DNA from: Escherichia coli | GTDB taxonomy: Bacteria; Pseudomonadota; Gammaproteobacteria; Enterobacterales; Enterobacteriaceae | Reading direction: 5' to 3' (one strand) | NCBI RefSeq assembly: GCF_030384885.1 | Contig: NZ_CP128613.1 | DNA length: 64,000 nt | Shown here: piece by piece, positions 4,912 to 43,493 of the stretch | Layout of the letters: every line of letters begins with the position of its first letter | How positions within the stretch are numbered: the stretch's first letter is position 1 | Translations under genes and position numbers: made by a program | Notes under the pieces: generated by a model | The model's database searches: none | Seen by the model: the letters and a program-made list of their open reading frames with translations, nothing else | Told to the model about the DNA's origin: nothing

Positions 4912-6045
4912 CTACATCGGCAAGGTTTTCAATAATCCAAACGCCTCTTTCATCCGATCCTCACTGACTACAAAGGCGCGAAGCTGGTCGGCATCGTCAA
5001 CGCCGCGCGCCACCATTCCCTGGCTTTCGGTACAAATCTGCCAGCGCAAATCCCGACGCTGGGTTTCCCCTGCCAGATGCAGCGGTAATTCCGGCGTTTT
5101 GATTTTCACCAGCATCGCCGGTAGTTTCAGCGGTGCGTTTCCACCGAGCAAGTTCTTCGCCAGCACCATCGCGCTAAGTTGAATCGGCTGCAGGAACGGC
5201 AATACCTGACCATTAATTTCTGCGCAATCGCCCAGCGCGTAAATATCGGCATTACTGGTTTGCAGATAACTATCGACGCAAACGCCGCGATTAATCGTCA
5301 GCCCGGCGCGTCGTGCCAGGGCGGTTTCCGGGCGCAGTCCGGTGGCGGCAATTACCGCATCCACTTCGGTGCTGCGCTGGCGGTCCAGCGTTGCCAGAAT
5401 GCCAGAATTCGTTTTTTCCAGCCCCTGCAACTGAGATTTCAACAGCAGATGAACGCCCATCTCCGTCAACCGATGCTGTAAGCGACTGCTTACTTCCGGT
5501 GGCATTAACGACGCCAGAATACTGGCAGCGTTGTCGATTAGCGTGACCGCTTTGCCTGCCCGACAAAAATCCATCGCCAGTTCGCTACCAATCAAACCAC
5601 CGCCTACAATCAACACCCGTCGGGCATCCCGCAGTTGTGTTTCACAGGCGCGATACTCTTGCTGACTATTTAACGTCAGCATTAACTCACGCCCAGGCAC
5701 CGGCGGGACAAAGGCGTTGGCACCGGTTGCCAGCACTAGCTTGTCGTATTGCCACTGATTATTCTGGCTTTTCACCACATGGGCTTCGGCATCGATATCC
5801 GTCACCCAGGTGTGCGGAAACAGGCGCAGATTAAACTGCTCGGCAAATTCACCCGCCGTCTGGCGGGTAAGGTCGTCGGCACGTTGCCCCTGACTGATCA
5901 CATGGCTAAGATCAGGTTTGTTGTACTCATCCATGCTGTCGGCGGCAATCAGGGTCAATGGAATACCGGTATCCTGTTTACGAATATTTTTCACCAGTTG
6001 GCGGGCGGCGAAGCCTGAACCAATGATCACAATGCCGTTGCTCAT
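4912..6045 (-). CDS. norW: NADH:flavorubredoxin reductase
   Basis: Track ORF 377 aa, [22 protein letters not shown] Rossmann motif; 4-nt overlap with norV. Confidence 0.9.
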
Positions 6046-7481
6046 TTTGCCTCCGATGCCAGTTCGTCAAAGACGTCTTTGCCGATGGAGCATTCCGGGC
6101 ACAGGAAGTTATCCGGGACTTCACTCCACGGCGTGCCTGGCGCAACGTCCTGCATTGGCTCGCCTTTTGCCGGATCGTAAATCCACTGGCAGACACTGCA
6201 CTGCATCCGCGGACCGAGATCAGCCGTCGTGGCGGCACAGGTTTCTTCTTTAACCACCGTATTCACCGTGCTTTGCGGCAGCGGCGAAAGCGCCCACTGA
6301 CGGGCAATTTCACGACCGTGTTCACGGCATAACTCCAGCGCGTCCTGGTCCGGTCGCCATTTGGCTTTCAGGCTAAGCGACATTTCGAAACCTGCATCCT
6401 GCAGGCGTGTGGAAAGACGATCCACCGCACCGCCGCTCCAGCCGTGAGAGCCGAAAGCACTGGCGCGTTTGTTACGGAAGCGTAATCCGGTCATCTCCTC
6501 CACCAGCCCGGCGATTTTCGGCATCATCACGTTATTCATCGTCGAAGTGCCAACCAGCACGCCTTTTGAGCGGAAGACATTGGTCAGGATTTCGTTTTTA
6601 TCGCTTCGGGCGACGTTGAAAATTTTCACCGCTACGCGCGGGTCGGTTTCCGCAATCCCCTGGGCGATAGCGTCAGCCATCATGCGGGTGTTATTCGACA
6701 TGGTGTCGTAGAAAATGGTGATTCTGTCTTCCTGATAATCCGCCGCCCATTTCAGGTACAGCTCGACAATTTGCGTCGGGTTATCGCGCCACACCACACC
6801 GTGAGAGGTGGCAATCATATCGACCGGCAAGTTAAAGCCCAGGATCTCGGTGATTTTCGGCGTTACCAGGCGGCTGAACGGTGTCAGGATATTGGCGTAG
6901 TAACGCTGGCACTGCTCGAAAAGCTCGGTCTGATCCACTTCATCGTTGAACAGATGCTCGTCGCAGTAGTGCTGACCGAAAGCATCGTTACTGAACAGCA
7001 CCGCGTCGCCCGTCAGGTAAGTCATCATGCTGTCCGGCCAGTGCAGCATTGGCGTTTCGACAAAAATGAGCTGTTTGCCGTTGCCGATATCCAGCGTGTC
7101 GCCGGTTTTCACCACGTTGAAATTCCACTCTGGATGATGGTGATGACCATTTATTGAGTCGATAGCGTTGGCAGTACAATAGATCGGCGTATCGGGAATT
7201 TGCGCCATCAGTTCGGTCAGCGCCCCGGCGTGGTCCTCTTCAGCATGGTTAATCACGATGTAATCGATATCCGCCAGATCGATTTCATTACGCAGGTTCT
7301 GCACAAATTCGCGGCTGAATTTATGGTCGACGGTGTCGATCAGCACGTTTTTTTCTTCGCGAATGAGGTAGCTGTTGTAGCTGCTGCCGCGCAGCGTTTT
7401 ATATTCTGTACCGTGAAAATCACGCACTTCCCAGTCACGTTGACCAACCCAATGAATGTTATTTTTCACCACAATAGACAT
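6042..7481 (-). CDS. norV: Anaerobic nitric oxide reductase flavorubredoxin
   Basis: Track ORF 479 aa; metallo-beta-lactamase-like and flavodoxin domains with C-terminal rubredoxin CxxC...CPxC. Confidence 0.9.
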
Positions 7482-7528
7482 AGCAACCTCAATTTATTCA
7501 GCGTGTTCTAAAAAGATGTCTTGTTAAT

Positions 7529-7544
7529 TGCAGATTGCGTGCCA
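7529..7544 (-). promoter_or_regulatory. Sigma-54 (-24/-12) promoter of norVW
   Basis: Reverse complement reads TGGCAC-gcaat-cTGCA, matching the GG-N10-GC sigma-54 consensus upstream of norV. Confidence 0.75.
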
Positions 7545-7599
7545 GTTTTTTATCTAATTGTTTTTAATATATAAATTAATTTATGCTCATTAATGAGTA

Positions 7600-7655
7600 G
7601 TCAAAATGACTATCAATCAAATGGTCGATATGACAATATCTATAGTCAAATTGAC
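7600..7655. promoter_or_regulatory. Three NorR enhancer-binding sites (GT-N7-AC)
   Basis: gtcaaaatgac (7600..7610), gtcgatatgac (7624..7634), gtcaaattgac (7645..7655) in the norR-norV divergent intergenic region. Confidence 0.8.
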
Positions 7656-7667
7656 AGTGAGGCAAAG

Positions 7668-9182
7668 ATGAGTTTTTCCGTTGATGTGCTGGCGAATATC
7701 GCCATCGAATTGCAGCGTGGGATTGGTCATCAGGATCGTTTTCAGCGCCTGATCACCACGTTGCGTCAGGTGCTGGAGTGCGATGCGTCTGCGTTGCTAC
7801 GTTACGACTCGCGGCAGTTTATTCCGCTTGCCATCGACGGACTGGCGAAGGATGTACTCGGTAGACGCTTTGCCCTGGAAGGGCATCCGCGGCTGGAAGC
7901 GATAGCCCGCGCCGGGGACGTGGTGCGTTTTCCCGCAGACAGCGAATTGCCCGATCCCTATGACGGTTTGATTCCAGGGCAGGAGAGTCTGAAGGTTCAC
8001 GCCTGCGTTGGTCTGCCGTTATTTGCCGGACAAAACCTGATCGGTGCATTGACACTCGACGGGATGCAGCCCGATCAGTTCGATGTTTTCAGCGACGAAG
8101 AGTTACGGCTGATTGCCGCGCTGGCGGCGGGAGCGTTAAGCAATGCGTTGCTGATTGAACAGCTGGAAAGTCAGAATATGCTGCCGGGCGATGCCGCGCC
8201 GTTTGAAGCGCTGAAAGAGACGCAGATGATCGGCCTGTCGCCAGGCATGACGCAATTGAAAAAAGAGATTGAGATTGTGGCGGCGTCCGATCTCAACGTC
8301 CTAATCAGTGGTGAGACGGGAACGGGTAAGGAGCTGGTGGCGAAAGCGATTCATGAAGCCTCGCCACGGGCGGTGAATCCGTTAGTCTATCTCAACTGTG
8401 CCGCACTGCCGGAAAGTGTGGCGGAAAGTGAGTTGTTTGGGCATGTGAAAGGGGCGTTTACTGGCGCTATCAGTAACCGCAGTGGGAAGTTTGAAATGGC
8501 GGATAACGGCACGCTGTTTCTGGATGAGATCGGCGAGTTGTCGTTGGCATTGCAGGCCAAGCTGCTGAGGGTATTGCAGTATGGCGATATTCAGCGCGTT
8601 GGCGATGACCGTAGTTTGCGGGTCGATGTGCGCGTGCTGGCGGCGACTAACCGCGACTTGCGCGAAGAGGTGCTGGCAGGGCGATTTCGTGCCGACTTGT
8701 TTCATCGCCTGAGTGTGTTTCCGCTTTCGGTGCCGCCGCTGCGTGAGCGGGGTGATGACGTCATTCTGCTGGCGGGGTATTACTGCGAACAGTGCCGCCT
8801 GCGGTTGGGGCTTTCCCGCGTGGTGTTAAGTTCCGGGGCGCGGAATTTATTGCAACATTATAGTTTTCCGGGAAACGTGCGTGAACTGGAACATGCTATT
8901 CACCGGGCGGTAGTGCTGGCGAGAGCGACCCGCAGCGGCGATGAAGTGATTCTTGAGGCGCAACATTTTGCTTTTCCTGAGGTGACGTTGCCGCCGCCAG
9001 AAGCGGCGGCGGTGCCTATTGTTAAGCAAAACCTGCGTGAAGCGACAGAAGCGTTCCAGCGTAAAACCATTCGCCAGGCACTGGCACAAAATCATCACAA
9101 CTGGGCTGCCAGCGCACGGATGCTGGAAACCGACGTCGCCAACTTGCATCGGTTGGCGAAACGTCTGGGGCTGAAAGATTAA
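7668..9182 (+). CDS. norR: Sigma-54-dependent NO-responsive transcriptional activator
   Basis: Track ORF 7593..9182; GAF domain, AAA+ sigma-54 activator domain (GETGTGKE Walker A, GAFTGA motif), C-terminal HTH; start refined to [14 protein letters not shown]. Confidence 0.9.
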
Positions 9183-25874: not shown

Positions 25875-25887
25875 TCAATTGAAGAGG

Positions 25888-25918
25888 CCGGGCAGGTGAT
25901 ATCACCGCCCGGTTTTTA
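25888..25918 (+). terminator. Intrinsic terminator of luxS
   Basis: ccgggcaggtgat/atcaccgcccgg stem followed by tttttatt; the stop codon of the convergent minus-strand gene lies inside the T-tract. Confidence 0.75.
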
Positions 25919-27031
25919 TTACCTGTCAGTCACCCGATATTCCACGCTATGTGCTTCATCAGGTTGAGGAACTTCCAGCCTTGAGGCCATCCGCATCACG
26001 ACCGCTTCAGGAACGGCATACTCGCGCCTGGCATTTTGCTGCTTCCATTGCGCCCATGGCACTTCCAGATAAACGATTTTTACTCGTGCGCCGTAAGCCG
26101 TAAACAGACTGATGAGCTGGCTACGCAGTTGGCGGGTAATGTTCGTTGCATTCCAGATGAACGGCTTTTTCTGGCGTAAAAAAACGCGCGCCTCTTCTTT
26201 TGCCTGTTGCACAATACGCCCGGTCGCGGTTTTGTCGTCCGGGCTGGCATTGATTCGCCGCCGCATATCATCAAGGCTGATAACGTCCATTCCCTGGCAC
26301 TGTTCACTGATATAGCGATCTTTGCCCATACCCGGTAAGCCACACAGCAAAATGACCTCAAAAGGTTCAGCCTCCCAGGGAACAAAATCAGGAGAACTTT
26401 GTTCATGGGTCAGATAATGCCAGCGTGCGGAATCAGACACGAACGAGCGCACTTTTCCCCAACACTGTTGCTCCTGGCAAAATAGCTCGAACAGATCGAT
26501 GCGTTCCAGCATTGATTGCTGATCATGACAATGGCGACCAAGCAGATCGGCACGAGCAAGCAAAGCGAGCAGACGCGTGTCGATACGCATTGCAGCCGTG
26601 AGCAGCAAACGCTCCGGTTCCGGACGTTCTAGTAACCATAGCGGTAACCCATGCAGACGCACCAGTGCAACAATTTGCTCGCGTAGCACGAACGGCGTCG
26701 GGATATCGCGCCATAAAATTTGTCGGGCCGTCAATTCACCCCGACGAGCATGACCAGGAGACTGAATACGTCCGTTTTCCTGCACGGTAGTACTGCGCTT
26801 TTCAACGTCATGCAATAACGCCGCCGCCCATAAAATTTCCTGCTGCTGAGCGGGGAGTTGCTGGAACTCTGGCAGAGCCACGAGTGCATTCAGCACCATT
26901 TCAGTATGCACACCAACGTCGCCTTCACCATGATGCTCCGGGTCTTGCGGCGTATTATGCATATCCTCAACCCAGCTAAAACGCTGGCGTAGCGTCGACC
27001 AGCGTTTGTCGTCGGTAAGTTGCCAAATCAT
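25919..27031 (-). CDS. HD phosphohydrolase fused to a P-loop polynucleotide-kinase-like domain (HD-Pnk-like end-healing enzyme)
   Basis: Track ORF 370 aa: N-terminal HD signature ([10 protein letters not shown] ... LLHDVEK); C-terminal P-loop CGLPGMGKD followed by DDMRRR, the Asp/Arg arrangement seen in T4 Pnk-type 5'-OH kinases; ATGA overlap with the upstream ligase-like gene. Confidence 0.6.
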
Positions 27032-27735
27032 GACTGTTCTCCATAAGCGAACTCATGGGCCATCCGCGCCCGTCGCCAGTGGCGTTTCCAGTGCTCGGTG
27101 GTTTTGACATGATTTTTGCGTACATACTTGAAGACGTTATGCGAAAAGTCAGCGACGGAAAACGCATCACTATTCCGGCTGACAATGCCTTCCAGCGTAC
27201 AGGGTTGTCCGGTTTGCGTATCCCAGGGATCGAACGCACCGCGCGCATTGGTCAGCGCCAGAAAATCACGTTGCCAGCTTTTTTCATCATTCCCCGGCTG
27301 CGGGCCGGAGATTTCGGGAACGCAGGGGAAATCAAACAGAGCGGCGTAAAACTGCACCTCTTCCCAGCTCAGCCACATATCCTGGCAGCGAACGGCAAAC
27401 AGATAAAAATCCTGCTCCAGGGCGCGATATTCAATCGAATGAACGGCATAAAGATTTTCACCAAACAACTCCAGATCGCCGAGATCGTTTTTCAGCAGTT
27501 GCCAGCGTTGGCGAATTTTATAGGTCCATGCCGATTGTGTAGGCGCGGCATGGGAACGGGCAAACACGCCGTAGCGGTTAAGGCAGTTATTTTCACCGTC
27601 GAGTTTTTCAGTATGTACCAACTGCGAAATTGCCTGCATATCTTGCCAGTAACTGGCGTTAATGCGGTCATCGCTGGTGGTGCCAGGGGAGAAGGGGTAA
27701 TGCCAGGTTCTCCCGTATTTACGTTGGGTATTCAT
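27028..27735 (-). CDS. ATP-dependent RNA/polynucleotide ligase-like nucleotidyltransferase, Rnl2-like motif I
   Basis: Track ORF 235 aa: motif I TEKLDGEN (K-x-D-G-x-N), then [12 protein letters not shown] (motif III-like), EGIVSRN (motif IV-like), [10 protein letters not shown] (motif V-like) in canonical order. Confidence 0.6.
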
Positions 27736-27951
27736 AATAATCCATTATTTTTTGTGTAATAAACGTACGCCCGCGAGGGTGCGAGTTATGGGGTTAAAAA
27801 AAATGTGAGTATCACCCGCGAAAGCGAGGGCGAAGAAAAAAGAGAATTAACAACCTGAGCGAATGCTCAGAACCGGTTAATGGTGAATGGAAGAGTTTGG
27901 AGCGGCGAAAAGATACACCGTTTGAGATGATAAAACAACCGTTTACAGAAT

Positions 27952-27982
27952 GAGCAAATAAAAAGGGAGCCGCAGCTCCCTT
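27952..27982 (-). terminator. Intrinsic terminator of emrB
   Basis: On the minus strand, gggagctgcggctccc hairpin followed by a U-run (plus strand aaataaaaagggagccgcagctccc). Confidence 0.7.
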
Positions 27983-27990
27983 TAACAACC

Positions 27991-41431: not shown

Positions 41432-41639
41432 GATTCGTATTTCCGTTTAAAATGAAGATACGGCGCGATGATACGCGTCGGGTTGTCTCTCTGCTGATAC
41501 AGAGATACTAGATGTAGTTGAAAAAAGATTCAACCATACAAGATATGGGAATTTTAGATTGATTACACCACCGATGAATGGCTCAACGGGGTAGGGGATT
41601 TTGTGTTTTTTTGCCGGGCGATTGCCCGGCATCAGGAAG

Positions 41640-42071
41640 TTACATCCGCATGGAAACGGCCAGGCGGTTAAAGCAATTCATCAGCCCGATGGCAAATGTT
41701 AAGTCGCTGATTTCTGCTGCGCTGAAATGCTCAAGCAAAGGCTGATAAACGTCGTCCTCCGCATGGGTTCGGGCAATATCGGTCACCGATTCCGCCCATG
41801 CCAGCGCCGCCCGCTCGCGATCGTCAAAATGATGGCTTACGCGCCAGCCTGCCAGGGCATCCAGCTTATGCTGCGGCACACCGGATTTGCGTAATGCTTT
41901 GCTGTGCATCTCCAGACAAAATGCGCAACCATTGATTTGCGAGACGCGCAAATAAACTAACTCCATCAGCGTAGTTTCCAGCGTGCTATTTTCCAGCGCC
42001 GTTTTGGCCTGCACCAGCGCGTTATATACCGTTGGGCTAAGTTCGTAGTAAGGCTGACGTAATGTAGTCAT
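41640..42071 (-). CDS. Carboxymuconolactone decarboxylase / AhpD-like family protein
   Basis: Track ORF 143 aa with the AhpD-core C-x-x-C-x-x-x-H motif (NGCAFCLEMH). Confidence 0.65.
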   Translation of the reverse strand: MTTLRQPYYELSPTVYNALVQAKTALENSTLETTLMELVYLRVSQINGCAFCLEMHSKALRKSGVPQHKLDALAGWRVSHHFDDRERAALAWAESVTDIARTHAEDDVYQPLLEHFSAAEISDLTFAIGLMNCFNRLAVSMRM

Positions 42072-42158
42072 ACAGTTTCTCCTCTTATTAACGCCCGCAA
42101 TGTAGCACTATAATGGACTGCTAAAGAGAGCCATAAATTACCTAAAAAAGCAGACCAT

Positions 42159-43493
42159 ATGCCGCGCTATCAGGATATCGCCCGTCAGTTAAAAACGGCT
42201 ATTGAGCAAGGGGAACTGAAACCCGGCGCAAGGCTACCTTCAAGTCGTACCTGGTCGCAGGAACTGGGGGTGTCTCGATCCACTGTCGAAAATGCGTATG
42301 CTGAGCTGGTGGCGCAAGGATGGCTGATCAGGCGGGGACAGGCTGGCACATTTGTCAGTGAGCAGATATATCCGCAACAATCTACTGTACAAGTTGTGGC
42401 TTTTGCCGGTGAAAGTCAGCAACCGTTGCCATTTCAAATGGGATTACCCGCACTCGATCTCTTTCCGCGAGAGCTGTGGGCGCGGGTGATGGGGCGTCGC
42501 CTTCGTACCCAGACGCGCTTTGATTTGGCGTTAGGCGATGTCTGCGGTGAGGCGGCGTTGCGTGAGGCAATAGTTGATTACTTACGCGTTTCACGTGGGA
42601 TTGATTGTCAGCCAGAGCAGGTCTTTATCACTCACGGTTATGCGGCCTCAATGGCTTTAATTCTGCACGCGCTGGCGAAACCGGGAAACGGGATGTGGAT
42701 GGAAGATCCCGGCTTTCCACTGATTCGCCCGATTGTCACTCGCCACGGTGTGGAAATTTTGCCTGTGCCGGTTGATGACAACGGACTGGATATCACAAGA
42801 GGAATACAAAATTATCCTGATGCGTGTTTTGCCCTGATAACACCAGCACACCAAAGCCCGCTGGGTGTGGCGCTCTCTTTAGCGCGCAGGCATCAGATAC
42901 TGGAATGGGCAGAGCGTAGTCAGGCATGGATTATTGAAGATGATTATGACAGTGAGTTTCGCTATCACGGTAAGCCGTTACCGGCGTTAAAAAGTCTCGA
43001 TGCACCGCAGCGGGTAATTTATGCCGGAACATTCAGCAAAGCACTATTTCCTGCATTGCGCTGTGCGTGGCTGGTGGTGCCGGTGAAGCAAATTGCACAA
43101 TTCCGCCACCAGGCGTCACTGGCTCCATGTGCGGTACCTGTTCTATGGCAGAACACACTGGCAGACTTTCTTCGCGAGGGGCATTTCTGGCGGCATCTGA
43201 AGAAAATGCGTCAGCATTATGCTCAACGTCGGCAATGGATTGAGCAAGCGTTGACGCAGCAGGGATTTCAGGTTGTGCCGCAGAAAGGTGGTATCCAGAT
43301 GGTGATCAGAATGATGGGCGATGATATTGCCCATGCGCGTAAAGCCAATGCTGCAGGCCTTGCGGTGCAGGCACTTAGCGACTGGCGTATCCGCTCAAGT
43401 GGGGAAGGTGGATTACTTCTCTCTTTTACCAATATCGTTAACGAAGGTATGGCGCGACAGGTAGCACAACAATTACGTAAAGCCTTAAGCTAA
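42159..43493 (+). CDS. MocR-type transcriptional regulator (GntR HTH fused to PLP-dependent aminotransferase-like domain)
   Basis: Track ORF 444 aa: N-terminal GntR-like HTH (SSRTWSQELGVSRSTVENAYAELVAQGWL) and fold-type I aminotransferase domain with candidate PLP lysine in YAGTFSKALFP; divergent from the CMD gene across an 87-bp spacer. Confidence 0.7.
   Translation: MPRYQDIARQLKTAIEQGELKPGARLPSSRTWSQELGVSRSTVENAYAELVAQGWLIRRGQAGTFVSEQIYPQQSTVQVVAFAGESQQPLPFQMGLPALDLFPRELWARVMGRRLRTQTRFDLALGDVCGEAALREAIVDYLRVSRGIDCQPEQVFITHGYAASMALILHALAKPGNGMWMEDPGFPLIRPIVTRHGVEILPVPVDDNGLDITRGIQNYPDACFALITPAHQSPLGVALSLARRHQILEWAERSQAWIIEDDYDSEFRYHGKPLPALKSLDAPQRVIYAGTFSKALFPALRCAWLVVPVKQIAQFRHQASLAPCAVPVLWQNTLADFLREGHFWRHLKKMRQHYAQRRQWIEQALTQQGFQVVPQKGGIQMVIRMMGDDIAHARKANAAGLAVQALSDWRIRSSGEGGLLLSFTNIVNEGMARQVAQQLRKALS

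Follow-up and report, generated by a model that had tools for sequence, protein, structure and literature searches.

We found that the 186 bp separating norR from norV in a 64,000-nucleotide stretch of Escherichia coli DNA (this whole stretch is hereafter called the window) are, with near certainty, the native divergent norR-norVW control region of this species, operated by NO-activated NorR and sigma-54. The elements of the region are present, with their position and orientation, they are identical to characterised DNA and conserved, and the proteins are intact. We retained this explanation as the best one because of the near-identity of the gap to that of K-12, the match to the published NorR123 fragment, the sigma-54 ChIP-seq and genomic SELEX results, the published site mutations, the presence of full-length NorR, NorV and NorW, and a layout that recurs across species. 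The region had been taken for a known system in an earlier, first-pass annotation of the window, and rightly so: it is the textbook norVW control region, with every listed element in place.

Methods

Sigma-54 elements were scored by consensus matching over 11 positions. For cross-species comparison, norV loci were collected from species-representative genomes by a pattern scan based on norV codons 10-18 with third positions left free. This yielded 120 loci from Enterobacterales, Vibrionaceae, Aeromonas, Shewanella, Pseudomonas and Paraburkholderia; counts given out of 121 include the window. A 50-locus alignment was also used, which comprised mainly Enterobacterales together with some Vibrionaceae and a Shewanella.

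Source of the DNA and genes of the locus

Over its 64 kb, the window differed by 11 mismatches from strain 2013C-4282 (NZ_CP027579.1), a near-identical strain isolated from human stool in the USA. Its identity to K-12 was about 96% overall and 93-99% per kilobase over the 54 kb that the two have in common. The E. coli lineage from which the DNA comes is a deep-branching one; a 361-bp segment that includes the norR-norV gap was found at an identity of at least 99% in only 11 of 5,426 complete E. coli genomes.

The norR-norV gap (7482-7667) extends exactly from start codon to start codon, and its GC content is 30%, compared with 50.5% for the window. Both norV and norW are intact and lie downstream of the promoter, norR is adjacent and divergent (Table 1), and rpoN, ihfA and ihfB are located outside the window. 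NorR was recognised by the NCBIfam equivalog NF003451 with 821.8 bits (cut-off 476), and the Pfam search returned GAF, Sigma54_activat and AAA_lid_14, with no match in that search for the C-terminal DNA-binding region. Identity to K-12 NorR reached 492 of 504 residues (98%); GAFTGA and Walker A were intact, and the 12 substitutions included C482S in the C-terminal DNA-binding region. The true start of norR is the ATG at 7668, the mechanically called open reading frame from 7593 being an in-frame upstream extension.

NorV (NCBIfam NF003954, 1045.6 bits) and NorW (NCBIfam NF003437, 677.7 bits) both scored far over the cut-offs of their families, and NorW was also assigned from the RefSeq annotation of the near-identical strain. 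NorV shared 473 of 479 residues (99%) with its K-12 counterpart. As norV and norW overlap by 4 nt, we consider them to be co-transcribed.

Table 1 Coordinates of the features of the norR-norVW locus in the window
Feature	Position	Strand	Sequence	Remarks
NorR site 1, promoter-proximal	7600-7610	+	GTCAAAATGAC; norV strand GTCATTTTGAC	-92 to -82
NorR site 2	7624-7634	+	GTCGATATGAC; norV strand GTCATATCGAC	GT-N7-AC; one mismatch to GTCA-N3-TGAC
NorR site 3, promoter-distal	7645-7655	+	GTCAAATTGAC; norV strand GTCAATTTGAC	-137 to -127
Sigma-54 -24/-12 element	7544..7529	-	TGGCACGCAATCTGCA (TGGCAC-N5-CTGCA)	Oriented toward norV
Sigma-54 promoter 17-mer	7529..7545	-	CTGGCACGCAATCTGCA	GG at -25/-24 (7543/7542), GC at -13/-12 (7531/7530)
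Presumed norVW transcription start (+1)	7518	-		From footprint numbering and ChIP-seq distance
norV 5' leader	7482..7517	-		Shine-Dalgarno GAGG at 7490..7487
AT-rich spacer	7545-7599			55 bp, 15% GC; presumed IHF-bent loop region
IHF-like 13-mer	7563..7551	-	AAACAATTAGATA	Two mismatches to WATCAANNNNTTR; followed by TGGCAC after 6 nt
norR	7668..9182	+		NO-sensing sigma-54 enhancer-binding protein, 504 aa; GAF, AAA+ with GAFTGA, C-terminal DNA-binding region
norR Shine-Dalgarno	7659..7662	+	GAGG	5 nt ahead of ATG; read from the sequence
norV	6042..7481	-		Flavorubredoxin NO reductase, 479 aa, intact
norW	4912..6045	-		NADH:flavorubredoxin reductase, 377 aa, full length

NorR enhancer sites

Motif scanning of the norR-norV gap for GT-N7-AC returned exactly three copies, all within 7600..7655, where the first-pass annotation had read three NorR sites. 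The palindrome GTCA-N3-TGAC is perfect in sites 1 and 3, and a repeat finder recovered the pair as a direct repeat spaced 45 bp and also as an inverted repeat. Relative to +1 at 7518 the three sites span -82 to -137; with respect to the divergent gene they are situated 13-68 bp upstream of the norR start codon.

The sequences available in Tucker et al. 2010 (PMC2831303) include mutagenic primers for sites 1-3, a 21-bp oligonucleotide carrying site 1 (NorR1, GATAGTCATTTTGACTACTCA) and a 66-bp fragment, NorR123. The latter, used in the published binding experiments, corresponds base for base to positions 7595-7660 of the window on the minus strand. Sites 2 and 3 match the primers Site2 and Site3 (PMC2831303), and the NorR1 oligonucleotide is contained in the 66-bp exact match. 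Because of this exact match, site 1 of the published work can be equated with the promoter-proximal site at 7600-7610, which is reported as the NorR site of highest affinity (PMC2831303). In K-12, changing any single site to GG-N7-CC abolished the induction of norV-lacZ, and the NorR footprint displayed protected G residues only between -137 and -84 (PMC2831303).

Sites 1-3 were invariant across seven Escherichia alleles, E. albertii included, the variation being confined to the linkers and the spacer. The complete 66-bp enhancer was identical in 3,735 of 5,426 complete E. coli genomes.

A fourth NorR-like palindrome, GTCACGTTGAC, which fits GTCA-N3-TGAC perfectly, occurs at 7434-7444 within norV codons 13-16 (+74 to +84) and is also present in K-12. 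Its closeness to the other three seemed non-random, but we rejected it as a NorR site: GT-N7-AC was kept there in 20 of 121 loci, the third position of the glycine codon was T in 42 of 121, and the published protection is given only for -137 to -84 (PMC2831303). This palindrome is probably a by-product of the codons.

Sigma-54 promoter and predicted norV start site

The element TGGCACGCAATCTGCA agreed with the consensus TGGCAC-N5-TTGCW at 10 of 11 positions and was the sole GG-N10-GC element in the gap. A promoter of the form TGGCAC-N5-cTGCA had been claimed at 7529..7544 from the letters of the sequence, and it is indeed present there, on the minus strand. As to whether motif scanning would place the sigma-54 element elsewhere, a consensus scan of 7300-7800 offered no better candidate, the one other GG-N10-GC element lying inside norR with a score of 5/11.

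In K-12, sigma-54 ChIP-seq identified the motif OS25 upstream of norV (Bonocora et al. 2015, PMC4591121), for which the sequence CTGGCACGCAATCTGCA, a score of about 12.3 and a distance of 37 nt between start and gene are given. Positions 7545..7529 of the window are identical to this motif, the 5' C at 7545 included. RpoN holoenzyme was also reported to bind the norR/norV spacer, where a genomic SELEX peak was observed (PMC8743547). The 16-bp promoter is identical in K-12 and six other Escherichia alleles, and the 5' C at 7545 is replaced by T in E. albertii.

We set +1 at 7518 because the outermost G residues of the norV strand in site 3 (7655) and site 1 (7602) would otherwise miss the published limits of -137 and -84. 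The difference 7518-7481 equals 37, which is the distance between start and norV in the ChIP-seq table. With +1 at 7518, the GC at 7531/7530 therefore takes positions -13/-12. In this strain, norV transcription would thus be expected to start at about 7518. An Rfam search of the norR-norV gap gave no match.

AT-rich spacer and IHF

It had further been suggested that an AT-rich stretch between the enhancers and the promoter could accommodate IHF bending. The AT-richness stands, the spacer containing 15% GC, and the cautious wording proved apt for IHF: a consensus scan found no exact or one-mismatch copy of the IHF consensus in the spacer, and no exact copy anywhere in the gap, the match in the spacer being the two-mismatch 13-mer of Table 1.

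Among orthologous loci, the exact consensus WATCAANNNNTTR was present in the spacer in 33 of 112, compared with 1.3% of shuffled spacers. In 31 of these 33 loci, it had the same orientation and lay 5-6 nt from TGGCAC, i.e. where E. coli has its two-mismatch copy. The block AATCAAnnnnTTAAAAA directly upstream of TGGCAC was conserved in the 50-locus alignment and reads as the IHF consensus. For K-12, IHF is reported to bind the region that separates the enhancers from the norV start site, and open complexes are reported to arise without IHF when NorR concentrations are high (PMC2831303). IHF may bind the spacer allele of this strain as well.

Two further features of the spacer were recorded. A perfect 12-bp palindrome, CTCATTAATGAG, is located at 7587-7598, separated by 1 bp from NorR site 1; the K-12 counterpart, CCCATTAATGAG, lacks perfect symmetry, and conservation beyond Escherichia was poor. 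The highest-ranking FNR-box candidate of the gap, with two mismatches (TTTATGCTCATTAA, 7580-7593), was rejected, such matches numbering 40 in the window versus 35 expected.

Comparison with K-12 and other E. coli genomes

Comparison with the characterised norV promoter, which the first-pass annotation had recommended as a check, bore out its reading. The gap aligned with that of K-12 MG1655 without indels and was identical at 179 of 186 positions. The seven differences fall at 7524 (-6) and, in the spacer, at 7556, 7567, 7569, 7577, 7580 and 7587; none affects the NorR sites, the linkers or the -24/-12 element. Divergence from K-12 was 3.8% in the gap versus 4.0-5.7% in norW, norV, norR and gutQ, and the differences reflect a lineage that is about 4% diverged across the whole window.

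The spacer of the window resembles those of E. albertii and of strain SCPM-O-B-8794, which carries a divergent norV promoter allele. The 90 bp at 7510-7599, which cover spacer and promoter, were matched at an identity of at least 99% in one of 5,426 genomes (2013C-4282) and at 90-95% in 4,735. A local import of this rare allele was considered and rejected, as the 54 kb common to K-12 are diverged throughout (93-99% identity per kilobase).

With six substitutions in the 55-bp spacer and one at -6, this near-unique allele might alter IHF binding or loop geometry, in which case the response of norVW to NO would be weaker, stronger or IHF-independent compared with K-12. We regard this as unlikely. 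Admittedly, E. coli already has a degenerate version of the IHF-like 13-mer, and the IHF-independent open complexes mentioned above would be compatible with such a change. However, the spacer length of 55 bp is kept and phasing is therefore unchanged, the sole change within the 13-mer (7556) affects its N4 part, and the surrounding part of the spacer, which showed the lowest conservation in the alignment of 50 loci, probably tolerates change. Moreover, the figures given above for gap and flanking genes indicate that divergence is not specific to the promoter. That the spacer and -6 allele actually re-tunes IHF-assisted looping in this lineage is distinctly improbable, because the spacer length is unchanged and the stretch is poorly conserved in general; were it true, the NO threshold or the amplitude of norVW expression would differ from that of mainstream E. 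coli.

Conservation of the layout across species

The pattern TGGCAY-N5-NTGN was detected 70-140 nt upstream of the norV pattern in 116 of 121 loci, and exactly three GT-N7-AC sites were present in the zone upstream of it in 77 of 121. In 39 of these 77, the sites were spaced by 21 and 24 bp, as in the window. When measured from the start of the proximal site, the distance to TGGCAC fell into two classes, (i) 53-55 bp (32 loci), including Aeromonas, Pseudomonas, Pectobacterium and Paraburkholderia, and (ii) 64-67 bp (66 loci, the window with 66 bp among them), including Enterobacteriaceae, Vibrio and Photobacterium. The classes differ by about one helical turn, which would be expected if looping depends on the face of the helix.

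The conserved blocks of the 50-locus alignment were the three sites, the IHF-like block and the -24/-12 element, followed by CATCTTTTT at the start site and by the leader, where the Shine-Dalgarno sequence and the block GCTGAAT.AATTGAGGTTGCTATG were conserved; conservation was low over the promoter-distal two thirds of the spacer.

At the -12 element, which lies about 90 nt ahead of the norV pattern match, 26 of the 116 sequences with a -24 element had TTGAT or CTGAT instead of CTGCA, i.e. an A replacing the near-invariant -12 C. These loci were found across all taxa sampled (e.g. Enterobacter, Klebsiella, Raoultella, Lelliottia, Pluralibacter, Morganella and Xenorhabdus), and four more of the 116 had TTGT or CTGT at -12. 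In the loci with these variants, the three NorR sites and TGGCAC were intact.

The cross-species survey thus adds three observations which may interest promoter specialists: the two distance classes, an IHF consensus by the -24 element that is degenerate in E. coli, and the widespread occurrence of TTGAT at -12.

The placement of the palindromes close to norR leads to a different reading, in which they serve mainly as operators for repression by NorR of its own sigma-70 promoter, norV activation being secondary. With the end of site 3 lying 13 bp upstream of the norR ATG, a promoter for norR would necessarily overlap the sites, and K-12 NorR is annotated as a 'dual regulator'. Negative autoregulation by NorR was also reportedly described by Hutchings et al. 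in 2002. We nonetheless judge it very improbable that this is their main function. An operator role is compatible with an enhancer role, and the latter is itself backed by experiment, the loss of any site leaving no norV induction; furthermore, the conserved classes of distance between sites and sigma-54 promoter argue for selection on enhancer geometry. No good sigma-70 promoter is apparent on the norR strand either: a standard scan of the plus strand for a norR sigma-70 promoter gave none, and the best candidate of a lenient scan (ATCAAA-19-TATAGT, 8/12, with a poor spacer) was not convincing. Besides their function as enhancers, the three sites are very probably operators for NorR autorepression too, because of the 13 bp between site 3 and the norR ATG and of the 'dual regulator' annotation in K-12.

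Chance expectation

Taken by themselves, the short motifs are not above chance. The bare GT-N7-AC motif occurs 204 times in the window, where two further 56-bp spans hold three copies, and sigma-54 consensus matches with at most one mismatch number 3 versus 3.55 expected. Exact GTCA-N3-TGAC palindromes are enriched (5 in the window versus 0.81 expected, a number reached in none of 100 shuffles), as are those with at most one mismatch (34 versus 20.35 expected). Three such matches (at most one mismatch) within 56 bp would by our own estimate arise by chance about 0.003-0.015 times per window.

The absence of enrichment of the short motifs leaves room for the reading that the matches are fortuitous and that an unrecognised sigma-70 promoter drives norVW, for which a weak sigma-70-like match exists on the norV strand (TTGTCA-16-GATAGT, 7636..7609). 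We give it practically no credence. One such sigma-70-like match was found where shuffled sequences predict 1.2, the DNA concerned is identical to K-12 DNA that has been footprinted, found bound in ChIP-seq and tested by mutation, so that the published K-12 experiments contradict this reading, and the layout is conserved across genera. We consider the control region to be above chance because palindrome enrichment is combined with a placement and orientation that fit a 186-bp divergent gap, with K-12 identity and with the cross-species layout. The decisive evidence is the identity to characterised DNA together with conservation.

Other features of the window

A second sigma-54 promoter, CTGGCATGATTTGTGAA, is located at 1799-1815 on the plus strand, with 38 nt between it and the annotated start of hydN (1853). 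Its sequence equals that of the hydN ChIP-seq site OS26 (PMC4591121), and its -12 dinucleotide is GA, not GC. Repeats of the GTCAT/GTCAC type at 1710-1760, upstream of hydN, are probably the FhlA enhancer. A sigma-54-like sequence, CGGCACTAATATTGCT, with 10/11 consensus positions was found at 62680-62695 on the minus strand, within the ypjA/ehaD autotransporter gene and antisense to it; ypjA does not appear in the main text of PMC4591121.

Two insertions relative to K-12 were noted. The first (25878-27989), between luxS and emrB, is absent from K-12 and holds two genes on the minus strand (25919-27031 and 27028-27735), of which one encodes a 370-aa protein that ends in an AAA_33 (polynucleotide-kinase-like) domain and the other a 235-aa member of the RNA ligase family; the pair resembles a cassette for RNA repair or modification. 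The second (41547-43491), between nrdH and ygaM, carries a gene of the carboxymuconolactone decarboxylase family (41640-42071, minus strand) and, divergently, one of the PLP-dependent aminotransferase family (42159-43493, plus strand).

The segment 58188-61350 begins with tRNA-Ile (58188-58263). Downstream of it, ypjCB and an ATPase gene are frameshifted and a recombinase gene is truncated; these look like remnants of an element integrated at the tRNA site.

Proposed mechanism and significance

By analogy with the K-12 literature, NorR binding, the need for all three sites and the binding of sigma-54 and IHF would be expected to hold for this strain. Sigma-54 RNA polymerase would occupy TGGCAC-N5-CTGCA (7544..7529, minus strand) as a closed complex, and NorR the three GT-N7-AC sites between -82 and -137 (7600-7655). 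Nitrosylation by NO of the iron centre in the NorR GAF domain would relieve the repression of the AAA+ domain, and DNA-bound NorR would form the active hexamer. Bending of the AT-rich spacer by IHF may then loop the hexamer onto the promoter, where ATP hydrolysis would open the DNA and allow norV-norW transcription from about 7518.

The norVW region is already known and nothing in it is new. The norR-norVW system is among the best characterised sigma-54 enhancer systems and has been used as a nitric-oxide biosensor part in synthetic biology (e.g. PMC9954711, PMC11334186); as a discovery, the present region matters little. Since every element was placed to the base from sequence alone, it makes a useful positive control.

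Comparison with known systems

The closest known system is that of K-12. The gap is 186 bp long in both, the two norVW promoters are identical in the 66-bp enhancer with its linkers and in the -24/-12 element, the leader and the Shine-Dalgarno sequences of norV and norR are identical too, and the loci have the same gene order, i.e. gutQ-norR followed by the divergent norV-norW-hypF. The window differs from the K-12 system by 7 substitutions in the gap and 12 residue changes in NorR.

In other Enterobacterales (Citrobacter, Salmonella, Klebsiella and Enterobacter, among others), the norR-norV regions likewise contain three GTCA-N3-TGAC-like sites spaced by 21 and 24 bp; TGGCAC follows the proximal site at a distance of about 66 bp, and an IHF-like block by the -24 element and a conserved leader are present. 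Many other Enterobacterales have the exact IHF consensus AATCAAnnnnTTA, whereas E. coli has AAACAAnnnnATA at that place. The flavorubredoxin loci of Pseudomonas, Aeromonas and Pectobacterium differ by a shorter distance between site and promoter, about 54 bp.

Beyond flavorubredoxin, systems of the NorR family control other targets, i.e. NorR-norAB in Ralstonia eutropha and NorR/FhpR-hmp in Pseudomonas aeruginosa (cited in PMC2831303). According to the literature, these share with the present region the type of activator and a GT-N7-AC core upstream of a sigma-54 promoter, but differ in their target genes.
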